Shown in pieces: positions 9,589 through 41,244 of a stretch of DNA of 64,000 bases (positions within the stretch are counted from its first letter, which is position 1; every line of letters begins with the position of its first letter). The stretch is from Candidatus Saccharimonadales bacterium (GTDB lineage: Bacteria > Patescibacteriota > Saccharimonadia > Saccharimonadales > DASZAF01). Under the pieces are notes generated by a model. That model ran no database searches. It saw only the letters and a program-made list of their open reading frames with translations, and was not told the origin of the DNA. The stretch is from positions 85,068-149,067 of the forward strand of contig DATIIB010000009.1 in the NCBI GenBank assembly GCA_035480055.1, written 5' to 3'. The position numbers and the translations under genes were made by a program.

Positions 9589-9675
9589 GGGCGAGTGGCG
9601 GAATTGGTATACGCGACGGACTTAAAATCCGTTGGTTGAAAGACCTTGTGGGTTCAAGTCCCACCTCGCCCACCA
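9589..9675 (+). tRNA. tRNA-Leu (anticodon UAA), class II with a long variable arm and encoded CCA
   Basis: The acceptor stem is GGGCGAG / CTCGCCC, followed by discriminator A and CCA. The anticodon stem ACGGA / TCCGT encloses the loop CTTAAAA (anticodon TAA). The T arm is GTGGG-TTCAAGT-CCCAC. The total length is 87 nt. Confidence 0.9.
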
Positions 9676-9720: not shown

Positions 9721-10653
9721 TTATGGCAGCGCAAACTTTGTAGCTGCGGCGTAGCCTAATTTATATAATCGTGTCTGTTGCTCGCGCGAAAGATTAAAGT
9801 CGGTGGCTTGAATGTCGCCAGTGTCCACAAAAACGGTGTGTGCTTGGGTTTCGGGGTCGTCGATGTGCAGTTGGTCGTGGCCGCGAATACTGGTTTCAAC
9901 GAGGGCCAGGATATATTCCACCAGATTATCAGTGGGCATACGCAGGCCCGTGGCCTTTTCTTTGGCCGACAACTTGATGCCGATTGTATTCCACGGCTTG
10001 TCTTTGAGCGGGCCAAATATGTCGATTGGGTAGTTCGAAAGCATGCCGCCATCAACAAATTGATCGCCAGCAAAAGTGACTGGCCGAAAATGGAATGGCA
10101 TGGCCATCGAGGCATGCACAGCATCGGCAACGTTCTGCTCGTCGGGGTCAAGACCGAGTTTGGGGTAATCAAAAGGAAAACGGAACATTTCGGTGCGCGT
10201 AATGTCCGAGGTTACTACCACGAGTTTATAGCGCTCACTTTCTGGTATGTCTGCAGCCCAGCCGTCAGTAAGCCGCAAATCGCCAAAAGTTCGGACGCCT
10301 TTGGTTTCGAGCTGCTGGGCCAGCCAATCCCGCGCGTAATTACCTTTATAAATTCCCCTATAGAGTGCCAACGAGGCCAGCTTGCCGGGCAGACCAAAGC
10401 GAGCCAGAAGCCCTTCGTCTTGAAACTTGCGGTAGTCGAGTTCTTCGACCATGGCTTTCATTTCGTCTGGCGTAAAACCAGCGGCTGTCAGCGCACCGAC
10501 AATTGCGCCAGCGCTGGTCCCAGCCACGCGGCGGAACTCGCAACCCTTTGCGGCAAGCGCGCCAACGGCACCGACCAACGCAATGCCTTTCACGCCACCA
10601 CCTTCTAAAACAATATCGCACGTATTCTCTGTGGAAGATGTAATTTCTGACAT
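9721..10653 (-). CDS. Patatin-like phospholipase
   Basis: It has the oxyanion motif GGGVKG, the nucleophile motif GTSAGA (GxSxG) and the catalytic Asp motif FVDGGMLSNYP. Confidence 0.88.
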   Translation of the reverse strand: MSEITSSTENTCDIVLEGGGVKGIALVGAVGALAAKGCEFRRVAGTSAGAIVGALTAAGFTPDEMKAMVEELDYRKFQDEGLLARFGLPGKLASLALYRGIYKGNYARDWLAQQLETKGVRTFGDLRLTDGWAADIPESERYKLVVVTSDITRTEMFRFPFDYPKLGLDPDEQNVADAVHASMAMPFHFRPVTFAGDQFVDGGMLSNYPIDIFGPLKDKPWNTIGIKLSAKEKATGLRMPTDNLVEYILALVETSIRGHDQLHIDDPETQAHTVFVDTGDIQATDFNLSREQQTRLYKLGYAAATKFALP

Positions 10654-10703: not shown

Positions 10704-10812
10704 TGCTACAATAAGCCTCAATGCAACAGTTTGTTTGTAGCCATCATAGTCATAGTTTGCCGGAGGCACGCGGTTAGTTTGCAATGCAAACGCCGGTTAC
10801 TCCGGCGTTTTT
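10704..10812 (+). promoter_or_regulatory. Candidate hisS leader/attenuator: an extended -10, a leaderless 18-codon ORF with 3 His codons, and an intrinsic terminator
   Basis: TGcTACAAT sits at 10704-10712. The ORF at 10721-10777 encodes MQQFVCSHHSHSLPEARG. A small hairpin GTTTGC-aat-GCAAAC (10777-10791) overlaps the 5' arm of a perfect 9-bp terminator stem, AAACGCCGG-ttact-CCGGCGTTT (10788-10810), which is followed by TT. Confidence 0.45.
10721..10777 (+). CDS. Putative leader peptide (18 aa, MQQFVCSHHSHSLPEARG)
   Basis: The ATG lies 8 nt after the -10 box. His codons sit at positions 8, 9 and 11. The TAG stop abuts the hairpin region. The call is speculative. Confidence 0.3.
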   Translation: MQQFVCSHHSHSLPEARG

Positions 10813-10822
10813 GATAAAATAT

Positions 10823-10831
10823 TGGTACAAT
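10823..10831 (+). promoter_or_regulatory. Second extended -10-like element TGgTACAAT, 11 nt upstream of the hisS ATG
   Basis: The sequence is TGGTACAAT, then aggaaacgatt, then ATG. This could be a constitutive proximal promoter downstream of the terminator hairpin. Confidence 0.3.
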
Positions 10832-10842
10832 AGGAAACGATT

Positions 10843-12147
10843 ATGGCTTTATCAACACAACCTTACAAAGGCGCCAGGGATCTGTATCCCGAAGAAAAGC
10901 GCGTTCAAAACTACATCTTTGATATCTGGAAAAAAGTCGCCGAAGGCTACGGCTACGAAAACTACGATGCTCCAATGCTCGAACCGTACGAGCTATACGC
11001 CGCTAAGTCCGGCCAAGAAATTGTCAGCGAACAAACCTATACCTTTACCGATCGTGGTGGTCGCACGGTGTGCATTCGGCCAGAAATGACCCCGAGTGTT
11101 AGCCGTATGGTAGCTGGTCGCCGCCAGGAACTTGCGTATCCAGCTCGCTGGTATTCCATTCCAAACTTATGGCGCTACGAGCGGCCGCAGCGTGGACGTT
11201 TGCGTGAGCACTGGCAGCTTAATGTCGACCTGTTTGGCGTGGACACGATTGATGGCGACCTCGAGCTGATCATGGTGGCCAACGACATCATGAAGGCTTT
11301 TGGCGCGACGGACAAAATGTACAAGATTAAGATCAACAGCCGCATGTTGGTGAACGAAATGATGAGCGGCTACTTGGGCTTGGACGTGATTCAGTCGCAA
11401 CTGATGATCAAACTGTTTGATCGCAAAGATAAGGTTAATCACGAAGAATTTAGCCAGCAAGCGGCTTCAATTTTTGACGATAATCAACGAAGTGATGGGC
11501 TGCGCAAAATTGCTCGCTTGCTCGGTGCCAGCACCATGGCAGAGCTACCAGATGAGCTGCGCGAGACTCACGCGATGCAGGAAGTCCAAGCGCTCTTTAG
11601 CTTGTTGCACGAGCATGGTGTTGCCAACGCGACATTTGATATTACTCTGATGCGTGGGTTTGATTATTACACCGACATTGTGTTTGAGGTCTTTGACACC
11701 AATCCCGAAAACAGTCGTTCGCTATTTGGCGGCGGTCGTTATGACGGACTGGTCGGCTTATTCGGCGTTGAGCCGGTACCGACCGTAGGGTTTGGCATGG
11801 GTGATGTCACGATTCGCGACTTTCTGGATGTGCACGGCCTTTTGCCGCAATTAGACCCAGCGGCTGAGATCTACTTAATTGTCCTGGGCGATGTCATGAA
11901 GCAAGCTCAAAAAGTGGCACGCGACCTCCGTGAAGAAGGTGTGAAGGTGGCGGTGGATATTACGCAGCGCAAGCTGGATAAACAACTTAAAACTGCCATT
12001 AAGCAGGGCATTCCGCACATTTTGTTCATTGGCAAAGAAGAACTGAGCGAAGAAATGTTCACCCTTAAAGACACCCGGACCGAAAAAGAAGAAAAACTCT
12101 CGCTAGAGCGCATAATAACCACCGTAAAGGACGTTCGAGAGGTCTGA
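10843..12147 (+). CDS. hisS: Histidyl-tRNA synthetase
   Basis: It has KGARDLYPEE, class II motifs including RYERPQRGRLREHWQLNVDLFG, GGGRYDGL and a C-terminal anticodon-binding domain. Confidence 0.9.
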   Translation: MALSTQPYKGARDLYPEEKRVQNYIFDIWKKVAEGYGYENYDAPMLEPYELYAAKSGQEIVSEQTYTFTDRGGRTVCIRPEMTPSVSRMVAGRRQELAYPARWYSIPNLWRYERPQRGRLREHWQLNVDLFGVDTIDGDLELIMVANDIMKAFGATDKMYKIKINSRMLVNEMMSGYLGLDVIQSQLMIKLFDRKDKVNHEEFSQQAASIFDDNQRSDGLRKIARLLGASTMAELPDELRETHAMQEVQALFSLLHEHGVANATFDITLMRGFDYYTDIVFEVFDTNPENSRSLFGGGRYDGLVGLFGVEPVPTVGFGMGDVTIRDFLDVHGLLPQLDPAAEIYLIVLGDVMKQAQKVARDLREEGVKVAVDITQRKLDKQLKTAIKQGIPHILFIGKEELSEEMFTLKDTRTEKEEKLSLERIITTVKDVREV

Positions 12148-25349: not shown

Positions 25350-25397
25350 GACTGCATAGGACAAAACGAGCTGTGCTTCAAAAGAGCACACTAAAAA

Positions 25398-25422
25398 GGA
25401 GCCGAAACCGGCTCCTTTTTTT
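25398..25422. terminator. Bidirectional intrinsic terminator between convergent rpsG and the 25443-25982 gene
   Basis: A 7-bp GC-rich stem, GGAGCCG-aaac-CGGCTCC, is flanked by AAAAA upstream and TTTTTTT downstream. Confidence 0.75.
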
Positions 25423-31965: not shown

Positions 31966-34900
31966 GTGGAAGACAATTTGCAAAATACTGGTAGTAATTC
32001 CGGTGGCAATCGTTTAAGTAACACGACGATTGGCTTTTCTGATACGCCCAATTCTGGGGTTCAATACCAGGCTCCTTTGGCTGCGCCACTTCCACCTGCT
32101 CCACCGCCACCCACGCAATCGTTAGAGGTACCGCCTGACAAGCCGGTTAAACCTCCTAGAGATCTACGAAAACTTATCAAACCTGTCGGAATCGGCTTAT
32201 TACTATTTGCCCTGCTTTTTGGCGGGCTCTTTGTGTTTATTACCATGAAACAGCACGCCCGAAAGGCCGCTGTTGCGAACCAGCAAACCGTTGATGCCGA
32301 TGCTCGCTTTAATCCCTTATCAATTTCGTTAAGCGACCTGGCCAAAGCTGGACAATTGGCGATCGACACCACGCCGACGCTGAGTATTAACGGCCAGCTG
32401 AAGGTCAACAACTCGCTGGTCATTTCGCCAACCGACAAGCCAAATGACGCCGTCGCCGGCCAGGTGTACTACGATAAAGGCGATAACAAGCTCGGCTATT
32501 ACAATGGTCACCAATTTGTGTTTATGGCCGACGGAAACCAAGTGGTACATAGCTTCGGCGGGGCAAATGGCGATATTACGCTGGGCAATAATCTTACGGT
32601 AACCAACGGTCAGTTGAATGTGACGCTGCCAACTGCGCAGTCGGTTCTTTCAGTGCAAGGCCAGACCGGCAATGTTTCATTCACCGGAAGCAGCGGCATT
32701 GCCGTAGATGGCACCACTCTAAGCAATACTGGTGTGCTAAATATTGGCGGGCTCACCGGCAGTGTTGGGCTAGGCAGTGGACTCACCGTGACAAACAATA
32801 CGCTCCAAAATAGCGGCATCATCAGCGCCGCCTCTGGCAGTCCAAACGTGACGGTCACCAATGACGGCAGCGGTAACATTACGATTAGCAGTGCGAGCGG
32901 TGGTGGCACAGTGAATAGTCCGGGCGGGACAGCTGGCAAGATCGCCAAATTTACTGGGGTGCAGACGATTGCCGATTCATTACTCTCCGAAAGCGGCAGC
33001 ACCGTAACCGTGGGCGGTAACCTGTCGGTCACCGGCGGACTAACGCTGGGGACGCTACTAAGTGTCGCTAATGGCGGCACCGGCGCGGCCAGTTTGGCGA
33101 ACAATGGCGTTTTGCTGGGCCAAGGCACAAGTCCAATCACCAGCGTCACGGCAGCTGGCAGCGGACTTTGTTTGGTTTCGACCGCGGGCGCGCCAACCTT
33201 CCAAGCTTGTCCAGGTGGCGGTGGCGTCACTTCTTTGGACGGTCTGAGCGGTGGCTTGACGCTCGCGAACAGTACGGGCGCAGGAACCACGATCACCATT
33301 AACGACGCAAGCACCAGCCAAAAGGGCATTGCCAGTTTCAACAGCACCAACTTCACGGCTAGCGGCGGGGCAATCAACACCATCCAAGATATTAGCGTCA
33401 GCGCCACGCCGACCTTCGGCAGATTGAATGTCACTTCCAGCCAAGCGACTAATCCAATGTTGCTGGTGAACAACACAAACGCCGGAGCGAGCGGTAACCT
33501 CCTGGATCTGCAAGTGAATGGCGCCAGTAAGTTCTACGTCACTCCAAGTGGTGGCCTGACACTGACCGGCGCAATTGATGGCCAGACAATATCCAGTAGT
33601 GCCACATTGACCGGCACCTTAACGGTCTCCGGGCCGTCTAACTTGAATGGTGGCGCGACTGTGATAGGCACGTTAACTGCGAACACCATTACGCCCACCA
33701 GCGCGCTGACAGTCGGTGCAACAAACCAGAGCTTCACTCTGCAGGGTAATAGCTCGAGCAGCATTACTGCAACCAATGGCGCCAACACCACAACCGTGGC
33801 TTTCCAGGCGCCCACCGCTAACGTCACCTACCGCTTTCTGACGGCAGCTGCGGGCACTTATGACATCTGCACCACGGCAGGCAACTGTACGGGCGCTGGC
33901 GGCGGTGTGAGCACCACAGGCGGCACCACGGGCACGATCCCGCTCTTTACGGGCAGCCAAACCATTGGCGATTCAGTACTGACTCAAAGTGGCACGACCG
34001 TCACGGTTGGCGGTACTTTGGCGGTCAACACCATCACGCCAACCTCCGCCCTTGTCGTTGGATCAGCTGGCCAGAACCTGACACTGCAAGGCGCAACTAC
34101 TACCGTGAGTTCAAGCGCCGGCGGCGTGACCAACAGTCTGGTTTTTGCCACACCGAGTGGCGGCAACAAGACGATCACCCTACCAAACGCCAGTGGCACA
34201 GTGGCGGTGAGCGCCACGGGCGCACTCAGCATTGATGCGAATGGCAACATCACCTGCCCGAGCTGTCTAACCAGCGCGGTCACCAGCCTCAACGGCCTCA
34301 CAGGCGCCTTAAATATTGCCAACGCCACTGCCAGTGCAAGTACGGTCACCATTAACGACGCATCGACCAGCCAAAAAGGTATCGCGCAGTTCAACAGCAC
34401 CAACTTCACGGCCAGTGGGGGAACGGTAAATACCGTGCAAAACATCAACGTGACTGCAACTCCAACTTTTGGAGATCTGACGCTCACCAGCAGTCAAGCG
34501 AGCAATCCAATGCTACTAGTGAACAACACCAACGCCGGCGCGAGCGGTAATCTACTGGATCTGCAGCTCAACGGACTTAGCAAACTGTCTGTCAGTCCGG
34601 GCGGCAATATGACTTTGGCTGGGACGATCAACGGCCAGACGATATCGAGTACCGCGAGCCTGACTGGTACCTTGGGGGTGGCCGGACTTGCCAGTTTGAA
34701 CGGTGGCGCAACGGTCACTGGGACGTTAACTGCCAACACTATCACTCCTACTGGCGCATTAACGGTTGGCGCAACCAACCAAAGTCTTCTTTTGCAAGGC
34801 AATAGCGCGACCAGCATTACCGCAACCAATGGTGCTAACACGACCACCTTCAATTTCCAGGCACCGACAGCCAACGTGACGTATCGCCTGCTGACCGCAG

Positions 34901-37900
34901 CGGCCGGCACCTATGATATTTGTACAAGCGTCGGCAACTGTGCTGGCACTGGCGGGGGAGTAACCACACCTGGAGGCACGGCTGGCAAGGTTGCCAAGTT
35001 CACCGCCAGCGGCGTGATCGGCGATTCAATCATTACCGACAATGGCAGTACGGTCACCATCGGCGGAACCTTAGCGGTCAATACGCTGACGCCGACCGGC
35101 GCTTTGACCGTTGGCGCAACTGGTCAGAATTTGACCTTGCAAGGCGCAACAACATCAGTCAGCGCGACTTCAGCCGGCATCACCAACACCTTAACGTTTG
35201 CCACCCCAAGCGGCAGCAACAAGACAATCACCATCCCCGATGCCAGTGGCACAGTGGCGGTCAGTGCCAGCGGGCCGATTCAAGTAGATGCCGCGGGTAA
35301 CATTACCTGTCCTAACTGTGTCACGACCAGCGGTGGTGGCGGACAGTCGGCTGTCGATAGCTTGAACGGCCTGACAGGCGCGCTGACACTCGCCAATGCC
35401 ACCGGCAGCGGCGGAACAGTCACCATCAACGATGCGAGCACCAGCCAAAAAGGTATCGCCCAGTTTAACAGCACCAACTTTACGGCGAGTGGCGGAACGG
35501 TCAACACCATTCAAGACATCAATACCACCGCAGCGCCAACTTTTGGTCGTCTGAATATCACTTCTAGCCAAGCCACTAACGACATGATCGCGGTCAACAA
35601 TACAAACGTCAGCGCGGCAGGTAATTTGCTCAAACTCCAATTGAATGGCGCTAATCGCTTTAGCGTCGATGCTGCAGGGAATGTGGTTGCGACAGGCACA
35701 CTGACCTCTGGCGCAATCAATGGCCAAACGATTTCAAACGCTGCAAGCCTGACCGGCACACTTGGTGTTGCTGGTTTAGCCAGTTTGAACGGCGGTGCGA
35801 CGGTCACTGGAACCTTGACTGCCAACACCATCACCTCCACCGCAGCCATGACGGTGGGCAATACGGGCCAAAATCTGACCCTGCAAGGTGCAGCCACAAC
35901 CATCACCTCTACCAGTGGTGCCAACACAACCACCTTGGCACTCCAAACTCCAACCGCCAACGTGACCTACCGACTACTGACCGCAGCAGCCGGCACCTAC
36001 GATATCTGTACCACCGTGGGAAACTGTGCAGGTGTGGGCGGGGGAGTGACGACGCCTGGCGGCACGGCAGGCAAGATCGCCAAGTTTACGGCCAGCGGCG
36101 TGATCGCCGATTCATTGCTTTCCGAAAGTGGTTCGACAATAACTGTGGCCGGGAACCTTAATTTAGTCACCGGCAATCAGTACCAGATCAATGGCACCCA
36201 GATCTCCTCGGCTGATCTTTCCAATGATGCCAATCTCGCCAAATTAAATGCCGCCCAAACCTTTACCGGCACCACCAATACTTTCAAAAACAGCAGCGAC
36301 TCGACCAGCGGCTTCACCATCCAAAACGCTGCGGGCCGCAATCTGCTGAATGCCAATACCTCCACCGGCGTCTTTACCTTTGGCAACATCACCAGCACGG
36401 CTGCTCAAGGCATTGCTGGCGCGTTGCAGTTGGCTGACGGGACCAATGATAACTTTGGTCTGACACTCAATACCACCACCTTAACCGGCAATCGAACCAT
36501 CAGCCTGCCAGATGCCGGTGGAACGGTGTGTCTGCAGAACTCAGCTTCATGTGGATTTGCAACGTCGTCGGGCTCAGGTAATTACATTCAGAATCAAATT
36601 GCGGCCGACCAAACCGCTAATTTCCGCATTACAGGTACCGGCCAAGCCAATACCTCATTACTGACGCCATTGCTCGACACTGCCACGGCGGTCGCCTTAA
36701 ATATCGGTACCAACAATGCCACAGTGATTAATCTTAATCAAAGCACCACAGTTGCTGCCAACAAGAACATTACATTTGCCGCGGGTGCAGGTAATTTTGA
36801 CCAATCAAACTCGACTGGGACATTCGCGACCGGGACAGGTCTGGTCAACCTCAATGGCAATACAACTGTAGCCAGCGGCAAGACCTTTACCGCCAACGGC
36901 GCTGCGCTTTTCCAAAGCAATGCCAACTCGGCCACTGCCTTCCAAGTGCAAAACGCTGCCGGGCGACACCTGCTGGCTGTTGATACATCGGGCAACAAAA
37001 CCACACTCGGCAATATCACCAGCACTGCAGGACAGGGGATTGCTGGCGCGTTGCAGTTGGCTGACGGGACCAATGATAACTTTGGCGCCACAATCAACAC
37101 CACCACGCTGACCGCTAACCGAACAATCATCGTTCCAGACGAATCTGGCACTCTCTGTTTACAAAGTTCTGGTTCATGTGGCTTTGCTGCCGCAACCGGC
37201 TCGGCCAACTACTTGCAGAACCAAAATAGCGTCGACCAAACGGCAAACTTCCGCATTACCGGCACCGGCCAGGCCAACACTTCACTCCTGACGCCACTAC
37301 TTGATACGGCCTCAGCAGTTGCGCTAAATATCGGGACAACGAACGCGACGGGCATCAACCTTAACCAGAGCACCAGCATTGCCGCCAACAAAAACCTCAG
37401 CTTTGCGGCTGGCGCAGGCAACTTTGACCAATCCAACTCGACCGGCACCTTTGCAACCGGCTCGGGCGCAGTCGGGCTAAACGGCAATGTGACCATTGCG
37501 GCAGGCAAAACGCTGACCTCCAACGGTACGGCTTTGTTCCAGAATAATGCAAACACCGCCACCGCCTTCCAAGTGCAGAATGCGGCCGGCCGGCAAATCT
37601 TAACGGTCGATACCTCTGGAAGCAAAACAACTTTTGGTAACATTACCAGCACGGCTGCGCAGGGGATTGCTGGCAACCTGGTATTGGCCGATGGCACAAA
37701 TGATAACTTTGGCCTGACCCTCAACACCACCACCTTGACCGCAAGCCGAACCATCACCTTCCCAGATGCGGCTGGCACGGTGTGTCTGCAAAGCTCGGCA
37801 GCATGTGGCTTTGCACTGTCATCCGGATCTGGCAATTACATCCAGAACCAAAGCGCCTCCGATCAAAGCGCTGATTTGCGCATTACCGGCACAGCCCGAG

Positions 37901-40900
37901 CCAACACTTCCGTACTGACCCCATTACTCGACACAGCCAGTGCCGCAGCACTCAACATCGGCACCACCAACGCCACGGCAATCAACTTGAACCAGAACAC
38001 CACCGTTGCCAGCGGCAAAACCTTTACCGCCAATGGGACGGCTCTGTTCAAACCAAATGCCGATTCAACCACCGCGTTCCAAATTCAGCCAGCAAGCATC
38101 AGCACCCCTGTATTTGACGTCAACACCACCAACCAGCGAGTGGGAATCAATACCAACGCACCAACCGAAGCTTTGGACGTAGTAGGAAACCTGCAAGTCA
38201 AAGACGCGGCCACAGCCACCAAAGCGTATCGGCTTCGTACTTCGGGCGGCGCGCTCGACCTTGAAGCTGGCGGCGCAAACTTGGTCCTGTCGGTATGGAG
38301 TGCCGCCGACTACACCGGGACACAGTACAGCCAATTCACGTTCCACAATGATGGATCGAGTATAGATGCCGGGCGCGGGATTATTGTTGGCGGTAACCTG
38401 GTCACGCACGGAACTGGACTCTTTAAGAACTCTTCGGACGGCGCAGGGGCGGTACAAGTCCAGAACGCGAGTGGTCTGAGTATTCTCTCCACCGATACCA
38501 GTACTGGAAAAACGACGCTGGGCAACATTACTAGTACTGCTGCCCAGGGAGTGGCAGGTGCGCTGGTACTCGCCGATGGCACCAACGACAACTTTGGTAT
38601 GACGCTGAACACCACCACCTTGACCGCCAACCGCACCATTAGCTTGCCTGATGCCGCCGGTACCATCTGTCTGCAGAATGCCACGGCGTGTGGATTTGCT
38701 GCTGCTAGCGGTTCAGCCAACTACATCCAAAACCAAAGCAGTGCTGACCAAACCGCTGATTTCCGCATCAGCGGCACTGCCAGGGCTAACACCTCGGTGG
38801 TTACTCCATTGCTCGATACAGCCTCAGGTGTTGCACTCAACATCGGCACCACCAACGCCACAGCCATCAACCTCAACAAAGCAACGGCGGTCACTGGGAA
38901 CTTATCGCAATCAGGCGGGACTATCACCCTTACCGGCAACAACACTTCGAGTGTCAGCACCACCACGGGCACCCTCACGCTACAAGGCGCAGGAGGCGTA
39001 ACCATTAACTCAACCAATGTTTCGGGAGCTTCTGGCGCAATCAGTTTGCAAAGCGGCAACTCGTCGGCAGGAACAGCGGGTAACGTCACCATTGATACCG
39101 GCACTACCTCCACTGGCACGCCAACGGTGAATGTGGGTGCCACCAATGCCAAAGCGGTGGCGGTGGGCAATACCGGCGGCACTGTCGCAATTCAAGGAAA
39201 CGGCACCTCAACAGCGGTGAGCATTCAATCAGCCGCTTCGGGCACGATTGCCATTGGAACGGCCAACGCCGCCAACACAATTCAGCTTGGCAACATTGCC
39301 AATGCCATCGCCCAGACCATCGGCATTGGCAACAACGCCACTGCCAGTTCAACCACCACGTTAGCAATGGGGAACTTACTCGGCACCAGCACAACGACAA
39401 TTCAAGGTGGCACTGGCGCCTCGGCGGTTGGCATTCAAGCTGGCACCAACGGCACAATCTCAATCGGAACCGCCAACGCCAATGCGGTTGTTATTGGCAA
39501 CACGGGTGCGACTGGTACAAACTCGATTACCGTTGGCCAATCAACTGCCAGCAACACGATCAACATCGGCAATGCGACTACCGCAACTGGTAACACGCAG
39601 ACGATTAACCTGGGTACCGCAGCAACCGGTACGGGCAAAGCAACAATCACCGTCGGCAACACCAACGGTGGGTCAGCCCTTAACTTGCAAGCCGGCACGG
39701 GCAACACCAATGTCCTCACCAACACCAGCGTCACCAGCTCGCCAATGTTCCTGCTCCAAAATGCAGGAGCTGGCGATGCAGGCCTAGAGGTAAAAACCGC
39801 CAACGCTGGCAGTAGCTACTACGTGGGAGTCGATGCCAGCAATGGTAACGCCTTTAACATCAACTCGTACACCGCGGCCACGCAAAACGGTACGGCGTAT
39901 GTATTCGGTCAGCAAACTCCTAACGCCTCGACTGACTCCAACGCGGGTGTCATCGAAACCTCGGACTTCACTACCAGTACCGCGGGCTCGATTTCGGCCA
40001 TTACCATGGACTTCAGTAACGTGGCCACGGTGGGCGATACTGTCTCAGTAGGGTTATATACTGATAGCGCTGGCTCTCCAGGTACACTCCTAGCTTCAAG
40101 CGGCACGCAAACCATCAATATTACCAGCGCTGGTGGACACAACTTAAATACCGTCAGTATTCCAACCACTGCTTTGAGCGCTACAACCAAATACTGGCTC
40201 GCCTTTAACACCAGCGGCCTCGACCCTTACTGGCAAGGAGCGAATAACTCTGGCCACTCAATTAAATACCTCACTCATGCCAACACCAGCTGGCCAGCTA
40301 GCTTTGGCACTCCAGGTGGAACCGACAGCAACACCGTCCTGACCGTGTATGGAACGGTAACCCCTAGCGGCTCGCTGACTGATACGTACACCAATTCACT
40401 CTTTAACTTAACTCAGGGCGGAGTTGCCACCTTCCGTAACGCGTCAAACTCCACTGGCGGATTCCAAGTACAGAACGCAAGCAGCGTGAACCAACTCGCC
40501 ATTGATACCACCAACTCACGCGTGATCTTAGGCACCAGCGATGGCGACACCACCGGAACATTGCTGGTCCTTGGCACCAAGACTACCAGCGGCGACCCTA
40601 CCGAAGTTGATGGCGCAATGTACTACAACAACGCCACTGAATCATTCCGTTGCGGCGTCAATGGAGCGTGGTACAGCTGTTTGGGCGGCATGCGCTATTC
40701 GCAAACGAGCCAAGGCAACCAGTCTGGGAACTTGCCACCTGCGAGTGATACGGTTGCAAACACTGTGACAGCCACAACATTTAACGATAAATATAGCGTA
40801 CCTGCAGGTGACTGTACGCCAGGACGCGTTTATCGCATAACTGCAGGTGGCGTCATCACCTTCCCAAGTACCTCGGGGTCACCAGCAAACGATATATCCG

Positions 40901-41244
40901 TGAAGATCCTGTGGGGCGCTACAACTATCGGTGTTACTGACTCCGGCGCGAGCTACCCAACTACCAGCGCAAATACCAATGTACCGTGGTACCTCAAGGC
41001 AACCATTACGTGTTACTCAACTTTCAGCGGTGGAACCACTTCTGCCGAGGTGCAGGGAGAGTTCTCGCTTAGCTCTAACGCGACTGGGCCAGCGCAACTT
41101 TCAATGATCGGCAACAGCTCAATCGGCCAAACGATTACAGTTAACAGCGCTCAGAACCTCGCACTTCAGTGGAAGTGGGGAACCGCCACCTCAACCCGAA
41201 GTATTACGCTACGCACATTTGTTGTCGAAGCACTCGGCCCATAA
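31966..41244 (+). CDS. Giant (3092 aa) membrane-anchored, repeat-rich surface fibre/adhesin-like protein
   Basis: The ORF is uninterrupted. A Pro-rich cytoplasmic N-terminus precedes one TM helix (IGLLLFALLFGGLFVFITM). The remaining ~3000 aa are rich in G/T/N/S/A with very few charged residues. They comprise three ~350-aa repeats, four ~209-aa repeats, a short-period repeat block and a unique C-terminal ~480 aa. Confidence 0.9.
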   Translation: MEDNLQNTGSNSGGNRLSNTTIGFSDTPNSGVQYQAPLAAPLPPAPPPPTQSLEVPPDKPVKPPRDLRKLIKPVGIGLLLFALLFGGLFVFITMKQHARKAAVANQQTVDADARFNPLSISLSDLAKAGQLAIDTTPTLSINGQLKVNNSLVISPTDKPNDAVAGQVYYDKGDNKLGYYNGHQFVFMADGNQVVHSFGGANGDITLGNNLTVTNGQLNVTLPTAQSVLSVQGQTGNVSFTGSSGIAVDGTTLSNTGVLNIGGLTGSVGLGSGLTVTNNTLQNSGIISAASGSPNVTVTNDGSGNITISSASGGGTVNSPGGTAGKIAKFTGVQTIADSLLSESGSTVTVGGNLSVTGGLTLGTLLSVANGGTGAASLANNGVLLGQGTSPITSVTAAGSGLCLVSTAGAPTFQACPGGGGVTSLDGLSGGLTLANSTGAGTTITINDASTSQKGIASFNSTNFTASGGAINTIQDISVSATPTFGRLNVTSSQATNPMLLVNNTNAGASGNLLDLQVNGASKFYVTPSGGLTLTGAIDGQTISSSATLTGTLTVSGPSNLNGGATVIGTLTANTITPTSALTVGATNQSFTLQGNSSSSITATNGANTTTVAFQAPTANVTYRFLTAAAGTYDICTTAGNCTGAGGGVSTTGGTTGTIPLFTGSQTIGDSVLTQSGTTVTVGGTLAVNTITPTSALVVGSAGQNLTLQGATTTVSSSAGGVTNSLVFATPSGGNKTITLPNASGTVAVSATGALSIDANGNITCPSCLTSAVTSLNGLTGALNIANATASASTVTINDASTSQKGIAQFNSTNFTASGGTVNTVQNINVTATPTFGDLTLTSSQASNPMLLVNNTNAGASGNLLDLQLNGLSKLSVSPGGNMTLAGTINGQTISSTASLTGTLGVAGLASLNGGATVTGTLTANTITPTGALTVGATNQSLLLQGNSATSITATNGANTTTFNFQAPTANVTYRLLTAAAGTYDICTSVGNCAGTGGGVTTPGGTAGKVAKFTASGVIGDSIITDNGSTVTIGGTLAVNTLTPTGALTVGATGQNLTLQGATTSVSATSAGITNTLTFATPSGSNKTITIPDASGTVAVSASGPIQVDAAGNITCPNCVTTSGGGGQSAVDSLNGLTGALTLANATGSGGTVTINDASTSQKGIAQFNSTNFTASGGTVNTIQDINTTAAPTFGRLNITSSQATNDMIAVNNTNVSAAGNLLKLQLNGANRFSVDAAGNVVATGTLTSGAINGQTISNAASLTGTLGVAGLASLNGGATVTGTLTANTITSTAAMTVGNTGQNLTLQGAATTITSTSGANTTTLALQTPTANVTYRLLTAAAGTYDICTTVGNCAGVGGGVTTPGGTAGKIAKFTASGVIADSLLSESGSTITVAGNLNLVTGNQYQINGTQISSADLSNDANLAKLNAAQTFTGTTNTFKNSSDSTSGFTIQNAAGRNLLNANTSTGVFTFGNITSTAAQGIAGALQLADGTNDNFGLTLNTTTLTGNRTISLPDAGGTVCLQNSASCGFATSSGSGNYIQNQIAADQTANFRITGTGQANTSLLTPLLDTATAVALNIGTNNATVINLNQSTTVAANKNITFAAGAGNFDQSNSTGTFATGTGLVNLNGNTTVASGKTFTANGAALFQSNANSATAFQVQNAAGRHLLAVDTSGNKTTLGNITSTAGQGIAGALQLADGTNDNFGATINTTTLTANRTIIVPDESGTLCLQSSGSCGFAAATGSANYLQNQNSVDQTANFRITGTGQANTSLLTPLLDTASAVALNIGTTNATGINLNQSTSIAANKNLSFAAGAGNFDQSNSTGTFATGSGAVGLNGNVTIAAGKTLTSNGTALFQNNANTATAFQVQNAAGRQILTVDTSGSKTTFGNITSTAAQGIAGNLVLADGTNDNFGLTLNTTTLTASRTITFPDAAGTVCLQSSAACGFALSSGSGNYIQNQSASDQSADLRITGTARANTSVLTPLLDTASAAALNIGTTNATAINLNQNTTVASGKTFTANGTALFKPNADSTTAFQIQPASISTPVFDVNTTNQRVGINTNAPTEALDVVGNLQVKDAATATKAYRLRTSGGALDLEAGGANLVLSVWSAADYTGTQYSQFTFHNDGSSIDAGRGIIVGGNLVTHGTGLFKNSSDGAGAVQVQNASGLSILSTDTSTGKTTLGNITSTAAQGVAGALVLADGTNDNFGMTLNTTTLTANRTISLPDAAGTICLQNATACGFAAASGSANYIQNQSSADQTADFRISGTARANTSVVTPLLDTASGVALNIGTTNATAINLNKATAVTGNLSQSGGTITLTGNNTSSVSTTTGTLTLQGAGGVTINSTNVSGASGAISLQSGNSSAGTAGNVTIDTGTTSTGTPTVNVGATNAKAVAVGNTGGTVAIQGNGTSTAVSIQSAASGTIAIGTANAANTIQLGNIANAIAQTIGIGNNATASSTTTLAMGNLLGTSTTTIQGGTGASAVGIQAGTNGTISIGTANANAVVIGNTGATGTNSITVGQSTASNTINIGNATTATGNTQTINLGTAATGTGKATITVGNTNGGSALNLQAGTGNTNVLTNTSVTSSPMFLLQNAGAGDAGLEVKTANAGSSYYVGVDASNGNAFNINSYTAATQNGTAYVFGQQTPNASTDSNAGVIETSDFTTSTAGSISAITMDFSNVATVGDTVSVGLYTDSAGSPGTLLASSGTQTINITSAGGHNLNTVSIPTTALSATTKYWLAFNTSGLDPYWQGANNSGHSIKYLTHANTSWPASFGTPGGTDSNTVLTVYGTVTPSGSLTDTYTNSLFNLTQGGVATFRNASNSTGGFQVQNASSVNQLAIDTTNSRVILGTSDGDTTGTLLVLGTKTTSGDPTEVDGAMYYNNATESFRCGVNGAWYSCLGGMRYSQTSQGNQSGNLPPASDTVANTVTATTFNDKYSVPAGDCTPGRVYRITAGGVITFPSTSGSPANDISVKILWGATTIGVTDSGASYPTTSANTNVPWYLKATITCYSTFSGGTTSAEVQGEFSLSSNATGPAQLSMIGNSSIGQTITVNSAQNLALQWKWGTATSTRSITLRTFVVEALGP
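32900..36170 (+). repeat. Intragenic tandem repeat type A: three full units of ~1.05-1.08 kb plus partial flanks
   Basis: Units start at 33225, 34279 and 35354. Each encodes V(T/D)SL(D/N)GL(S/T)G.L..AN...TINDASTSQKGIAQFNSTNFTASGG.(V/I)NT(I/V)Q(D/N)I, ...LLVNNTNAGASGNLLDLQ.NG, ...TAAAGTYDICT..GNC.G.GGGV and ...GNITCP.C. DNA identity between units is ~80-85% by eye. Confidence 0.85.
36283..38900 (+). repeat. Intragenic tandem repeat type B: 627-nt (209-aa) units
   Basis: Units start at 36283, 36910 and 37537, giving an exact 627-nt period. A fourth starts at 38422 after a ~375-nt unique insert (38047-38421). The unit motif is F(K/Q)N..(D/N)....F.(I/V)QNA.G...L..DTS..KTT.GNITSTAAQGIAG.L.LADGTNDNFG...NTTTLT.NRTI..PD..GT.CLQ.S..CGFA...GS.NY(I/L)QNQ...DQ(T/S)A(N/D)(F/L)RI(T/S)GT..ANTS.(L/V)TPLLDTA...ALNIGT.NAT.INLN. 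Confidence 0.85.
38900..39760 (+). repeat. Intragenic short-period degenerate repeat block (beta-helix-like)
   Basis: The block contains runs such as GTIAIGTANAANTIQLGN, GTISIGTANANAVVIGN, NTINIGNATTATGNTQTINLG and KATITVGNTNGG, with a ~15-20-aa periodicity. Confidence 0.6.

Follow-up and report, generated by a model that had tools for sequence, protein, structure and literature searches.

The window described here, which is the whole 64,000-nucleotide (64-kb) stretch of Candidatus Saccharimonadales contig DATIIB010000009.1, carries on its plus strand the gene hisS, coding for histidine--tRNA ligase (HisRS), and a short leader region that separates hisS from a divergent patatin-like gene. The hisS product matches TIGR00442 at 350.8 bits (cutoff 286.75) and contains the Pfam domains tRNA-synt_His and HGTP_anticodon, the latter being the anticodon-binding domain. 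Since the upstream patatin-like gene is divergent, the leader hairpin cannot terminate an upstream gene. An earlier note on this DNA had proposed that the leader is a transcription attenuator of hisS operated by a ribosome translating a short open reading frame (ORF) with histidine codons, and direct reading of the sequence found every element of that proposal in its place. The evidence presented here is entirely computational, being drawn from sequence, comparative genomics and RNA folding; it concerns the elements, their conservation, the reading frame, the link to hisS and other his genes, the possible alternative pairings and covariation. The features of the region are as follows.

10704-10712, plus strand: P1, an extended -10 box, TGCTACAAT, 8 nucleotides (nt) upstream of the leader ATG; predicted promoter
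10721-10777, plus strand: leader ORF of 18 codons, MQQFVCSHHSHSLPEARG, with the ATG at 10721 and the stop codon TAG at 10775-10777
10742-10753, plus strand: His codons, all CAT (10742-44, 10745-47 and 10751-53), the last being the family-invariant codon
10755-10763, plus strand: GTTTGCCGG, the upstream segment listed in the earlier note, as read from the sequence
10759-10763, plus strand: segment 1, GCCGG, with the Pro codon CCG at 10760-62
10764-10770, plus strand: linker AGGCACG, joining segment 1 to segment 2
10771-10780, plus strand: segment 2, CGGTTAGTTT, with the leader stop codon inside it
10777-10791, plus strand: antiterminator tip hairpin GTTTGC-aat-GCAAAC
10788-10812, plus strand: predicted intrinsic terminator with a 9-bp stem, AAACGCCGG-ttact-CCGGCGTTT followed by TT; its arms are segments 3 and 4
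10823-10831, plus strand: P2, a second extended -10 box, TGGTACAAT; predicted promoter and candidate for basal expression of hisS
10832-10836, plus strand: AGGAA, a Shine-Dalgarno-like sequence for hisS, as read from the sequence
10843-12147, plus strand: hisS, histidine--tRNA ligase (TIGR00442 and Pfam)
9721-10653, minus strand: patatin-like gene, divergent, upstream of the leader

The 130-nt leader has a folding energy of -39.7 kcal/mol (z = -2.8 relative to dinucleotide shuffles). The hairpin pattern CGCCG-N3-12-CGGCG occurs a single time in the 64-kb window, and the leader terminator is among the three sites of the window at which a strong intergenic hairpin is combined with a T-run.

Conservation of the leader in Saccharibacteria

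A search with the window HisRS retrieved 80 species-level hisS loci of Saccharibacteria (TM7), the best match being 73% identical and most of them 55-60%. Upstream of hisS, many of these distant relatives contain the same elements in the same order, namely a -10 box, an ATG-initiated mini-ORF, GCCGG, CGGTTAGTTT and a hairpin. The mini-ORF of the relatives comprises 14-22 codons, includes the motif H-H-x-H-x-x-P and usually ends in G-stop, and the hairpin, (A)AACGCCGG-loop-CCGGCGTTTT, is located 30-85 nt upstream of the hisS ATG. The 15 cleanly aligning sequences (alignment A1), picked partly for their His ORFs, served as the seed of a covariance model, R1. This model matched 23 of the 80 hisS loci, with one strong plus-strand match each (E <= 1.5e-7), and had exactly one match in the 64-kb window, at 10721-10816 (68.1 bits, E = 6e-13). 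Neither R1 nor a hairpin scan revealed a further leader-plus-terminator unit elsewhere in the window.

Metagenome DNA was searched with a pattern consisting of the RNA segments only, GCCGG-N7-CGGTTAGTTT-N8-38-CGCCG-N3-12-CGGCG. Nothing is constrained upstream of the Pro codon in this pattern and no His codon is required, and it therefore provides an unbiased test of the His codons. It found 55 loci, while the number of chance matches to its 25 specified bases was estimated at about one or fewer. These 55 members were selected for segments 1-4, so that only features outside the pattern are independent in this set: the His codons, the ATG, the -10 box, the covariation between linker and loop, and the downstream genes. 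The whole arrangement recurs at 78 loci besides the window, giving a family of at least 79 members, and 79 sequences make up alignment A2. Distant Saccharibacteria, with HisRS identities of only 52-75%, retain the leader. Loss of the ORF, its His codons or the hairpin in relatives would, according to the earlier note, have refuted the proposal; the opposite was found, all three being conserved in distant members of the lineage.

An in-frame mini-ORF is present at all 55 metagenome loci. The unique metagenome sequences, obtained with no selection for His, all (52 of 52) have CAT, and never CAC, as the third codon before Pro, which occupies columns 36-38 of alignment A2; His is encoded at position -5 in 40/52 and at position -6 in 37/52, and at least two His codons within six codons are found in 48/52. 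CAT is also favoured over CAC at the other His positions (30:7 and 34:6), and the preference could reflect slower wobble decoding or a constraint at the RNA level. Pro is invariably encoded by CCG, always 6 nt away from the last His codon, and A1 contains no indels in this interval. The consensus of the peptide is ..T-N-Q-H-H-L-H-I-(L/S)-P-E-(R/L)-(V/I)-G-stop, its N-terminal half being not conserved. The window leader has three His codons within four codons, upstream of hisS, which is the enrichment in cognate codons that characterises leader-peptide attenuators.

The reading frame itself is under constraint. In the His frame, 68 of 70 members have an open frame running from an ATG to the invariant His codon, as against 1 and 2 members in the other two frames, and the first ATG that follows the best -10 hexamer shares this frame in 49/51. 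The distances from ATG to His are 24, 27, 30, 33 ... nt, that is, they change in steps of 3 only. In 67 of 74 members the leader ORF ends within segment 2, its stop codon being at +16 counted from where segment 1 begins. These features are evolutionary evidence that the leader ORF may be translated, and the ORF with His codons, which the earlier note had described for a single genome, recurs across the family. Alignment of the leaders of relatives, a check of the kind that the earlier note had suggested, revealed both the conservation of the His codons and covariation in the terminator stem.

Upstream of the leader ORF, a -10-like hexamer is found 4-12 nt before the in-frame ATG in 62 of 74 members, with a TG extension in 36 of those. 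The hexamers of the family are mostly TATAAT or TACAAT and often TG-extended; they end 6-7 nt before the ATG in 41/74 members (mode 7 nt), and the gap in the window is 8 nt. As this gap leaves no space for a Shine-Dalgarno sequence, the leader mRNA is probably leaderless or nearly so, its transcript starting at about the AUG. Three loci with the leader following a tRNA-Leu gene have no -10 box of their own, and at one of the tRNA-adjacent leaders, L079, AGGAG precedes the ATG. A tRNA-Leu gene with the anticodon UAG is located just upstream of the leader or of hisS at L029:2705-2788, L046:2777-2861 and L079:2770-2853, and also at L006, L009 and L020. The order in the window is a tRNA-Leu(UAA) gene (9589-9675), the divergent patatin-like gene and the leader; an insertion of the patatin gene between tRNA-Leu and leader was considered and dropped, the tRNA-Leu of the relatives being of the UAG type and that of the window of the UAA type.

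The second extended -10 box is associated with hisS in particular. The sequence TGnTAnnnT occurs between the terminator and the next gene at 19 of 28 loci if this gene is hisS, and at 2 of 30 if it is another gene; at these 30 loci the terminator directly precedes the Shine-Dalgarno sequence of his-related genes. This distribution supports the assignment of P2 to basal hisS expression that had been made from the window sequence, and it fits a basal level of the essential synthetase supplied on top of attenuated transcription from P1. At the Shine-Dalgarno position of hisS the relatives have AGGA or GGAG. In most relatives P2 is about 7 nt upstream of the Shine-Dalgarno sequence, unlike in the window, where P2 ends 11 nt upstream of the hisS ATG and its transcript would probably start downstream of the AGGAA Shine-Dalgarno sequence. 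It may be speculated that the mRNA read through from P1 is the better-translated form of hisS mRNA.

Alternative folds and a proposed mechanism

Between the leader ORF and hisS the window contains a predicted intrinsic terminator with a folding energy of -14.2 kcal/mol. In alignment A2, 97.8% of the cells of the terminator stem can pair, and compensatory double changes were observed at 5 pairs (16 cells), a result reached by 0 of 500 shuffles. The hairpin is GC-rich, and a U-run follows it in nearly all members. A generic promoter/terminator scan of the window missed this terminator as well as the extended -10 boxes, which is not counted against them; for the hairpin, the miss is ascribed to the A-T closing pairs, which use up part of the T-run under the tail rule of the tool.

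RNAalifold predicts a small hairpin, formed by CCG of segment 1 and CGG of segment 2, together with the terminator. At minimum energy, segments 1-4 of each of the first 15 sequences are predicted to adopt one long nested hairpin, in which segment 1 pairs with segment 4 (GCCGG:CCGGC) and segment 2 with segment 3 (CGGU:GCCG), topped by a GUUU../..AAAC tip hairpin. The earlier note had called for a comparison of the energies of the alternative structures: in the window, the nested fold has -28.4 kcal/mol, against -4.9 (1:2) plus -14.2 (3:4) kcal/mol. Segment 2 thus has two possible partners: segment 3, with which it builds the antiterminator, and segment 1, to which it binds weakly. The earlier suggestion that 10755-10763 could pair with the 3' arm of the terminator also agrees with the energy folds, GCCGG(AG) at 10759-65 being able to pair there.

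The hairpin GTTTGC/GCAAAC, regarded by the earlier note as the antiterminator, is present but is too small to be the whole of it. In the window, the antiterminator extends beyond this tip hairpin by CGGU (10771-74) pairing with GCCG (10792-95), and further by A10768 and C10769 pairing with G10796 and U10797, which are the top of the terminator stem and the start of its loop. Equivalent tip hairpins with other sequences are found in relatives, e.g. GTTTTT/AAAAAC and GCTTT/AAAGC. In 74 of 74 unique members, removal of segments 1 and 4 leaves an RNA in which the 5' arm of the terminator has at least 4 of its 6 core nucleotides paired with upstream sequence, in line with the proposal that terminator and alternative pairings are mutually exclusive.

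The core columns of the 1:4 and 2:3 helices are invariant, and covariation counting was therefore replaced by permutation tests on matched and mismatched duplexes. Pairing the [segment 1-linker-segment 2] of each member with its own [segment 3-loop-segment 4] gave -25.1 kcal/mol, compared with -21.5 kcal/mol for mismatched partners (0/10000 permutations). When the stems were made constant and only linker and loop were allowed to differ, the values were -21.4 kcal/mol for own and -17.8 kcal/mol for mismatched partners (z = -12.6, 0/20000 permutations). In the window, AG of the linker pairs with CU of the terminator loop, in addition to the pairing of the linker AC described above. Complementarity of linker and loop is not a by-product of two small hairpins, which indicates that the nested fold or the inner antiterminator is under selection. 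In L007, L013 and L015 the ORF ends early (..LPA-stop) and CGGTTGCTTT is still kept downstream of the stop codon; it appears that RNA structure, and not the peptide, constrains the 3' half of the ORF.

On this evidence the region is considered, with a probability of roughly 80%, to be a histidine-specific, ribosome-mediated transcription attenuator of hisS of the trpL/hisL/pheM type. The same reading had been advanced in the earlier note; the comparative evidence supports it and extends it to at least 79 members. In this attenuator, transcription from P1 would begin essentially at the leader AUG, and a ribosome would translate the 18 codons. When charged His-tRNA(His) is plentiful, the ribosome would reach the UAG inside segment 2 (CGGUUAGUUU) and cover this segment. 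With segment 2 masked, segment 3 (AAACGCCGG) would pair with segment 4 (CCGGCGUUU), so that the terminator would form and transcription would end at the U-run, about 30 nt upstream of hisS.

When charged tRNA(His) is scarce, the ribosome would stall on the CAU codons. Counted from the invariant His codon's first base, segment 1 occupies positions +9 to +13; since the front of a ribosome reaches about 12-13 nt beyond the start of the codon in its A site, a ribosome stalled there would be expected to cover segment 1. With CAU 10751-53 in the A site, its leading edge would thus hide segment 1 (10759-63) and leave the linker and segment 2 free. The antiterminator would then arise from their pairing with segment 3, the first base of the loop and the tip hairpin, while segment 4 would remain unpaired and RNA polymerase would read into hisS. 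The leader therefore combines an alternative pairing with suitably placed His and stop codons, the geometry of masking being taken from known ribosome footprints. In RNA free of ribosomes, segment 4 could be closed by either segment 3 or segment 1, which would make termination the default and keep leakiness low. P2, located downstream of the terminator, would provide a constitutive floor of expression for the essential hisS.

Alternative explanations and points against attenuation

Several points weigh against the attenuator. Its distribution is patchy: the closest sampled relatives of the window, L001-L004, with HisRS 62-73% identical, have no leader, and no degenerate leader was found in them either by eye or with R1. 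This patchiness is not taken as evidence against function. At L069:2858-2962, directly upstream of hisS, R1 has a weak match (44.8 bits) in which the His-codon frame lacks an ATG and stops just before CCG; it may represent a decaying copy or one with non-canonical initiation. The antiterminator is weaker than the terminator, with mean energies of -12.3 and -15.5 kcal/mol, respectively, in 74 members and of -11.6 and -14.2 kcal/mol in the window, so that the model needs kinetic, co-transcriptional control and probably also a pause of RNA polymerase. The core 1:4 and 2:3 pairs, being invariant (99% pairable), give no covariation signal, and the long-range 1:4 helix is hypothetical as a terminator. 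There are only 3 His codons, compared with 7 in the enterobacterial hisL. Promoter use, transcript ends and translation are all predicted from sequence, as are leaderless translation, the geometry of the ribosome footprint, the efficiency of termination and the response to histidine. Finally, the conserved P2 could supply all transcription of hisS, and the upstream unit would then be autonomous.

The last point leads to a different explanation, in which the leader is an autonomous small-protein gene: the 18-residue peptide would be functional and have its own promoter (P1) and terminator, hisS would be transcribed from P2 only, and the adjacency would reflect co-function or history. Such a gene would account for the completeness of the unit, with promoter, ORF and terminator, for the conserved promoter-like P2 downstream of it and for the conserved peptide motif HHxHxxPE..G. 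However, the N-terminal half of the peptide is unconserved, whereas the nucleotides of segment 2 are kept even outside the ORF; synonymous sites are frozen, with Pro always CCG and the regulatory His always CAT; and the covariation of linker and terminator loop would be superfluous for a peptide gene. Moreover, at the 30 loci where the terminator leads into the Shine-Dalgarno sequence of his-related genes, P2 is almost always missing. The small-protein gene is consequently regarded as very unlikely. In another alternative, a ribosome-independent RNA sensor similar to a T-box or another riboswitch would bind uncharged tRNA(His) or histidine directly, with the CAU in the role of specifier and an ORF present only incidentally; hisS is under T-box control in Firmicutes (PMC2965389), and an invariant CAU with terminator and antiterminator alternatives would suit a specifier-type sensor. 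Against this, ATG, frame and stop codon are conserved, indels come in multiples of 3, the -10 box is positioned for a transcript starting at the ATG, and upstream of the His codons there is no conserved sequence or structure that could form a platform resembling Stem I. Searches of Rfam gave no T-box (RF00230), His_leader (RF00514) or other credible match, also when the 207-nt intergenic region was searched alone at E <= 10, and the UGGN bulge is absent from the conserved segments of A1, confirming the impression from the window sequence that T-box elements are lacking. A sensor of this kind is highly improbable.

A leader ORF sensing histidine could also have another output, i.e. Rho-dependent polarity, mRNA stability or translation initiation, in which case the hairpin would chiefly take part in RNA processing or stability. 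Such an output would be compatible with the example of the leaderless Cys short ORFs of mycobacteria, which affect translation through the exposure of a ribosome-binding site, and with the small number of canonical terminators visible in the window. It is nevertheless unlikely here. The hairpin is rich in GC, its stem covaries and nearly all members have a U-run after it; it is separated from the start codon of hisS by 30-85 nt and does not overlap the Shine-Dalgarno sequence, and the mutually exclusive pairings engage the terminator 5' arm and not the ribosome-binding site.

Histidine genes under the leader and relation to known systems

The link to histidine was further examined in the genes downstream of the leader, counted at loci with enough downstream DNA. 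In 28 loci hisS is the first gene after the leader, and in 30 it follows further along the same string of genes; among the loci with 6 kb of downstream DNA, only one lacks hisS, and it begins with hisG-hisD. The genes found between leader and hisS include those for ATP phosphoribosyltransferase (HisG), histidinol dehydrogenase (HisD) and a HisG-PRA-PH fusion, confirmed by Pfam for L058, L041 and L035, while BLAST similarity identified genes of HisG/HisD type at L081, L083, L088, L093, L103, L120, L134 and others. Other than by sensing of histidine or tRNA(His), it is hard to account for one sensor shared by the synthetase and the enzymes of the first and last steps of the histidine pathway.

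The operons differ in their composition. The leader is followed by hisG-hisD at L058:922-3001, L081, L134, L120 and L103, by the HisG+PRA-PH fusion at L041 and L093, and by a HisG-like gene and then hisS at L035, L083, L088 and L106. In these leader-headed operons the genes for HisG, which is of the short form, and HisD lie directly upstream of hisS. No hisZ was seen in the DNA fetched for the hisG/hisD leader loci, and HisRS might conceivably also serve there as the regulatory subunit HisZ. The lineage is described as having limited biosynthetic capabilities (PMC7427843), and it may be asked why such a lineage retains the first and the last enzymes of the histidine pathway. Between leader and hisS there are also families with no Pfam match or an uninformative one, of which one is found at L040:2321-2989, L084, L086, L112 and L123 and another at L072:1170-1988, L102, L104, L124, L125 and L131, as well as genes of SLOG cluster 4 (L030:2449-3000) and DUF6282 (L038:2004-2984). 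Because of their placement under a histidine sensor, the unknown families are candidates for histidine-linked functions.

Elsewhere in the window, a perfect 12-bp hairpin, AAAAAGGAGCCG-aaac-CGGCTCCTTTTT, with T-runs on both strands is located at 25393-25420 between two minus-strand genes and probably terminates transcription in both directions. On the plus strand, one open reading frame, at 31966-41244, is very long, with about 3090 codons.

Bacteria belonging to the Candidate Phyla Radiation (CPR), such as Saccharibacteria, possess very small genomes in which few regulators can be recognised. A conserved His-sensing leader would mean that these organisms monitor the charging of tRNA(His) and adjust the synthetase and, where present, hisG/hisD through classical transcription-translation coupling. 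The switch is compact, at about 95 nt, its covariance model is ready for use in annotation, and several unannotated protein families become tied to histidine by guilt by association. More tentatively, and with doubt outweighing confidence, the leader may be a distinct attenuator design that underlies a histidine 'ribulon' in Saccharibacteria, combining a leaderless ORF, a double lock and control of hisS, hisG/hisD and unknown families. The double lock would consist in the closing of the terminator 3' arm either by segment 3 or, through linker-loop pairing, by segment 1, and it would be opened only by a ribosome parked on one specific CAU. If this were true, tight transcription-translation coupling and amino-acid sensing would operate in ultra-small episymbiotic CPR bacteria, and the unknown families would be flagged as histidine-linked.

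The leader appears to be a new family of a well-known kind of switch, uncatalogued in Rfam. The only Rfam match was a weak one to sroD (23.8 bits, gathering score 50); it spans little beyond the terminator hairpin and was rejected as a chance resemblance. A literature search of incomplete coverage found no paper joining the CPR with transcription attenuation, nor a description of a regulatory leader peptide or cis-regulatory attenuator in Saccharibacteria/CPR.

A close parallel in the histidine system is the enterobacterial hisL (RF00514). It, too, has a short ORF in which His codons cluster, with antiterminator and terminator hairpins as alternatives downstream; as is proposed for the window leader, it senses charged tRNA(His) through the position of a ribosome and has read-through into histidine genes as its output. 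In relatives of the window, the Saccharibacteria leader also heads hisG-hisD operons. However, the Saccharibacteria leader has no sequence or structure homology to hisL, contains 2-3 His codons in a span of 4-6 codons compared with 7 in a row, and is probably leaderless, whereas hisL is led by a Shine-Dalgarno sequence. In addition, its target in the window is a synthetase and not a biosynthetic operon, and its segment 4 has two possible partners. In E. coli the pheM leader controls pheST by attenuation. Here the likeness lies in the control of an aminoacyl-tRNA synthetase gene by leader-peptide attenuation through codons for its own amino acid; the amino acid and the phylum are different, the sequences are unrelated and the Saccharibacteria element adds a conserved downstream promoter.

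Among leaderless systems, the polycysteine short-ORF attenuators of mycobacteria described by Canestrari et al. (bioRxiv 10.1101/834739) resemble the leader in having a leaderless sensory first cistron, as predicted here, in which stalling on cognate codons remodels the downstream RNA. Their output is translational, the unmasking of a ribosome-binding site, whereas the structure in the window is a predicted terminator at least 30 nt upstream of the start codon that does not contain the Shine-Dalgarno sequence, and its output would be transcriptional. The T-box of Firmicutes hisS (RF00230) shares with the leader the gene, the proposed signal, charging of tRNA(His), and the terminator/antiterminator logic, but it binds tRNA directly and has no ORF, while the window has no T-box features. 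In the Firmicutes, His leader peptides have been predicted by Naville and Gautheret (PMC2965389) upstream of a hisS paralog and of hisZ in Bacillus. These also combine a His-codon short ORF with a premature terminator upstream of a gene of the HisRS family and were recognised by comparative genomics; they differ in phylum and in targeting a paralog and hisZ instead of the sole hisS. The same authors noted the switching of hisS between T-box and leader-peptide control (PMC2965389), and the Saccharibacteria leader would be another such case, the mode of control of hisS, T-box or leader peptide, differing between phyla.

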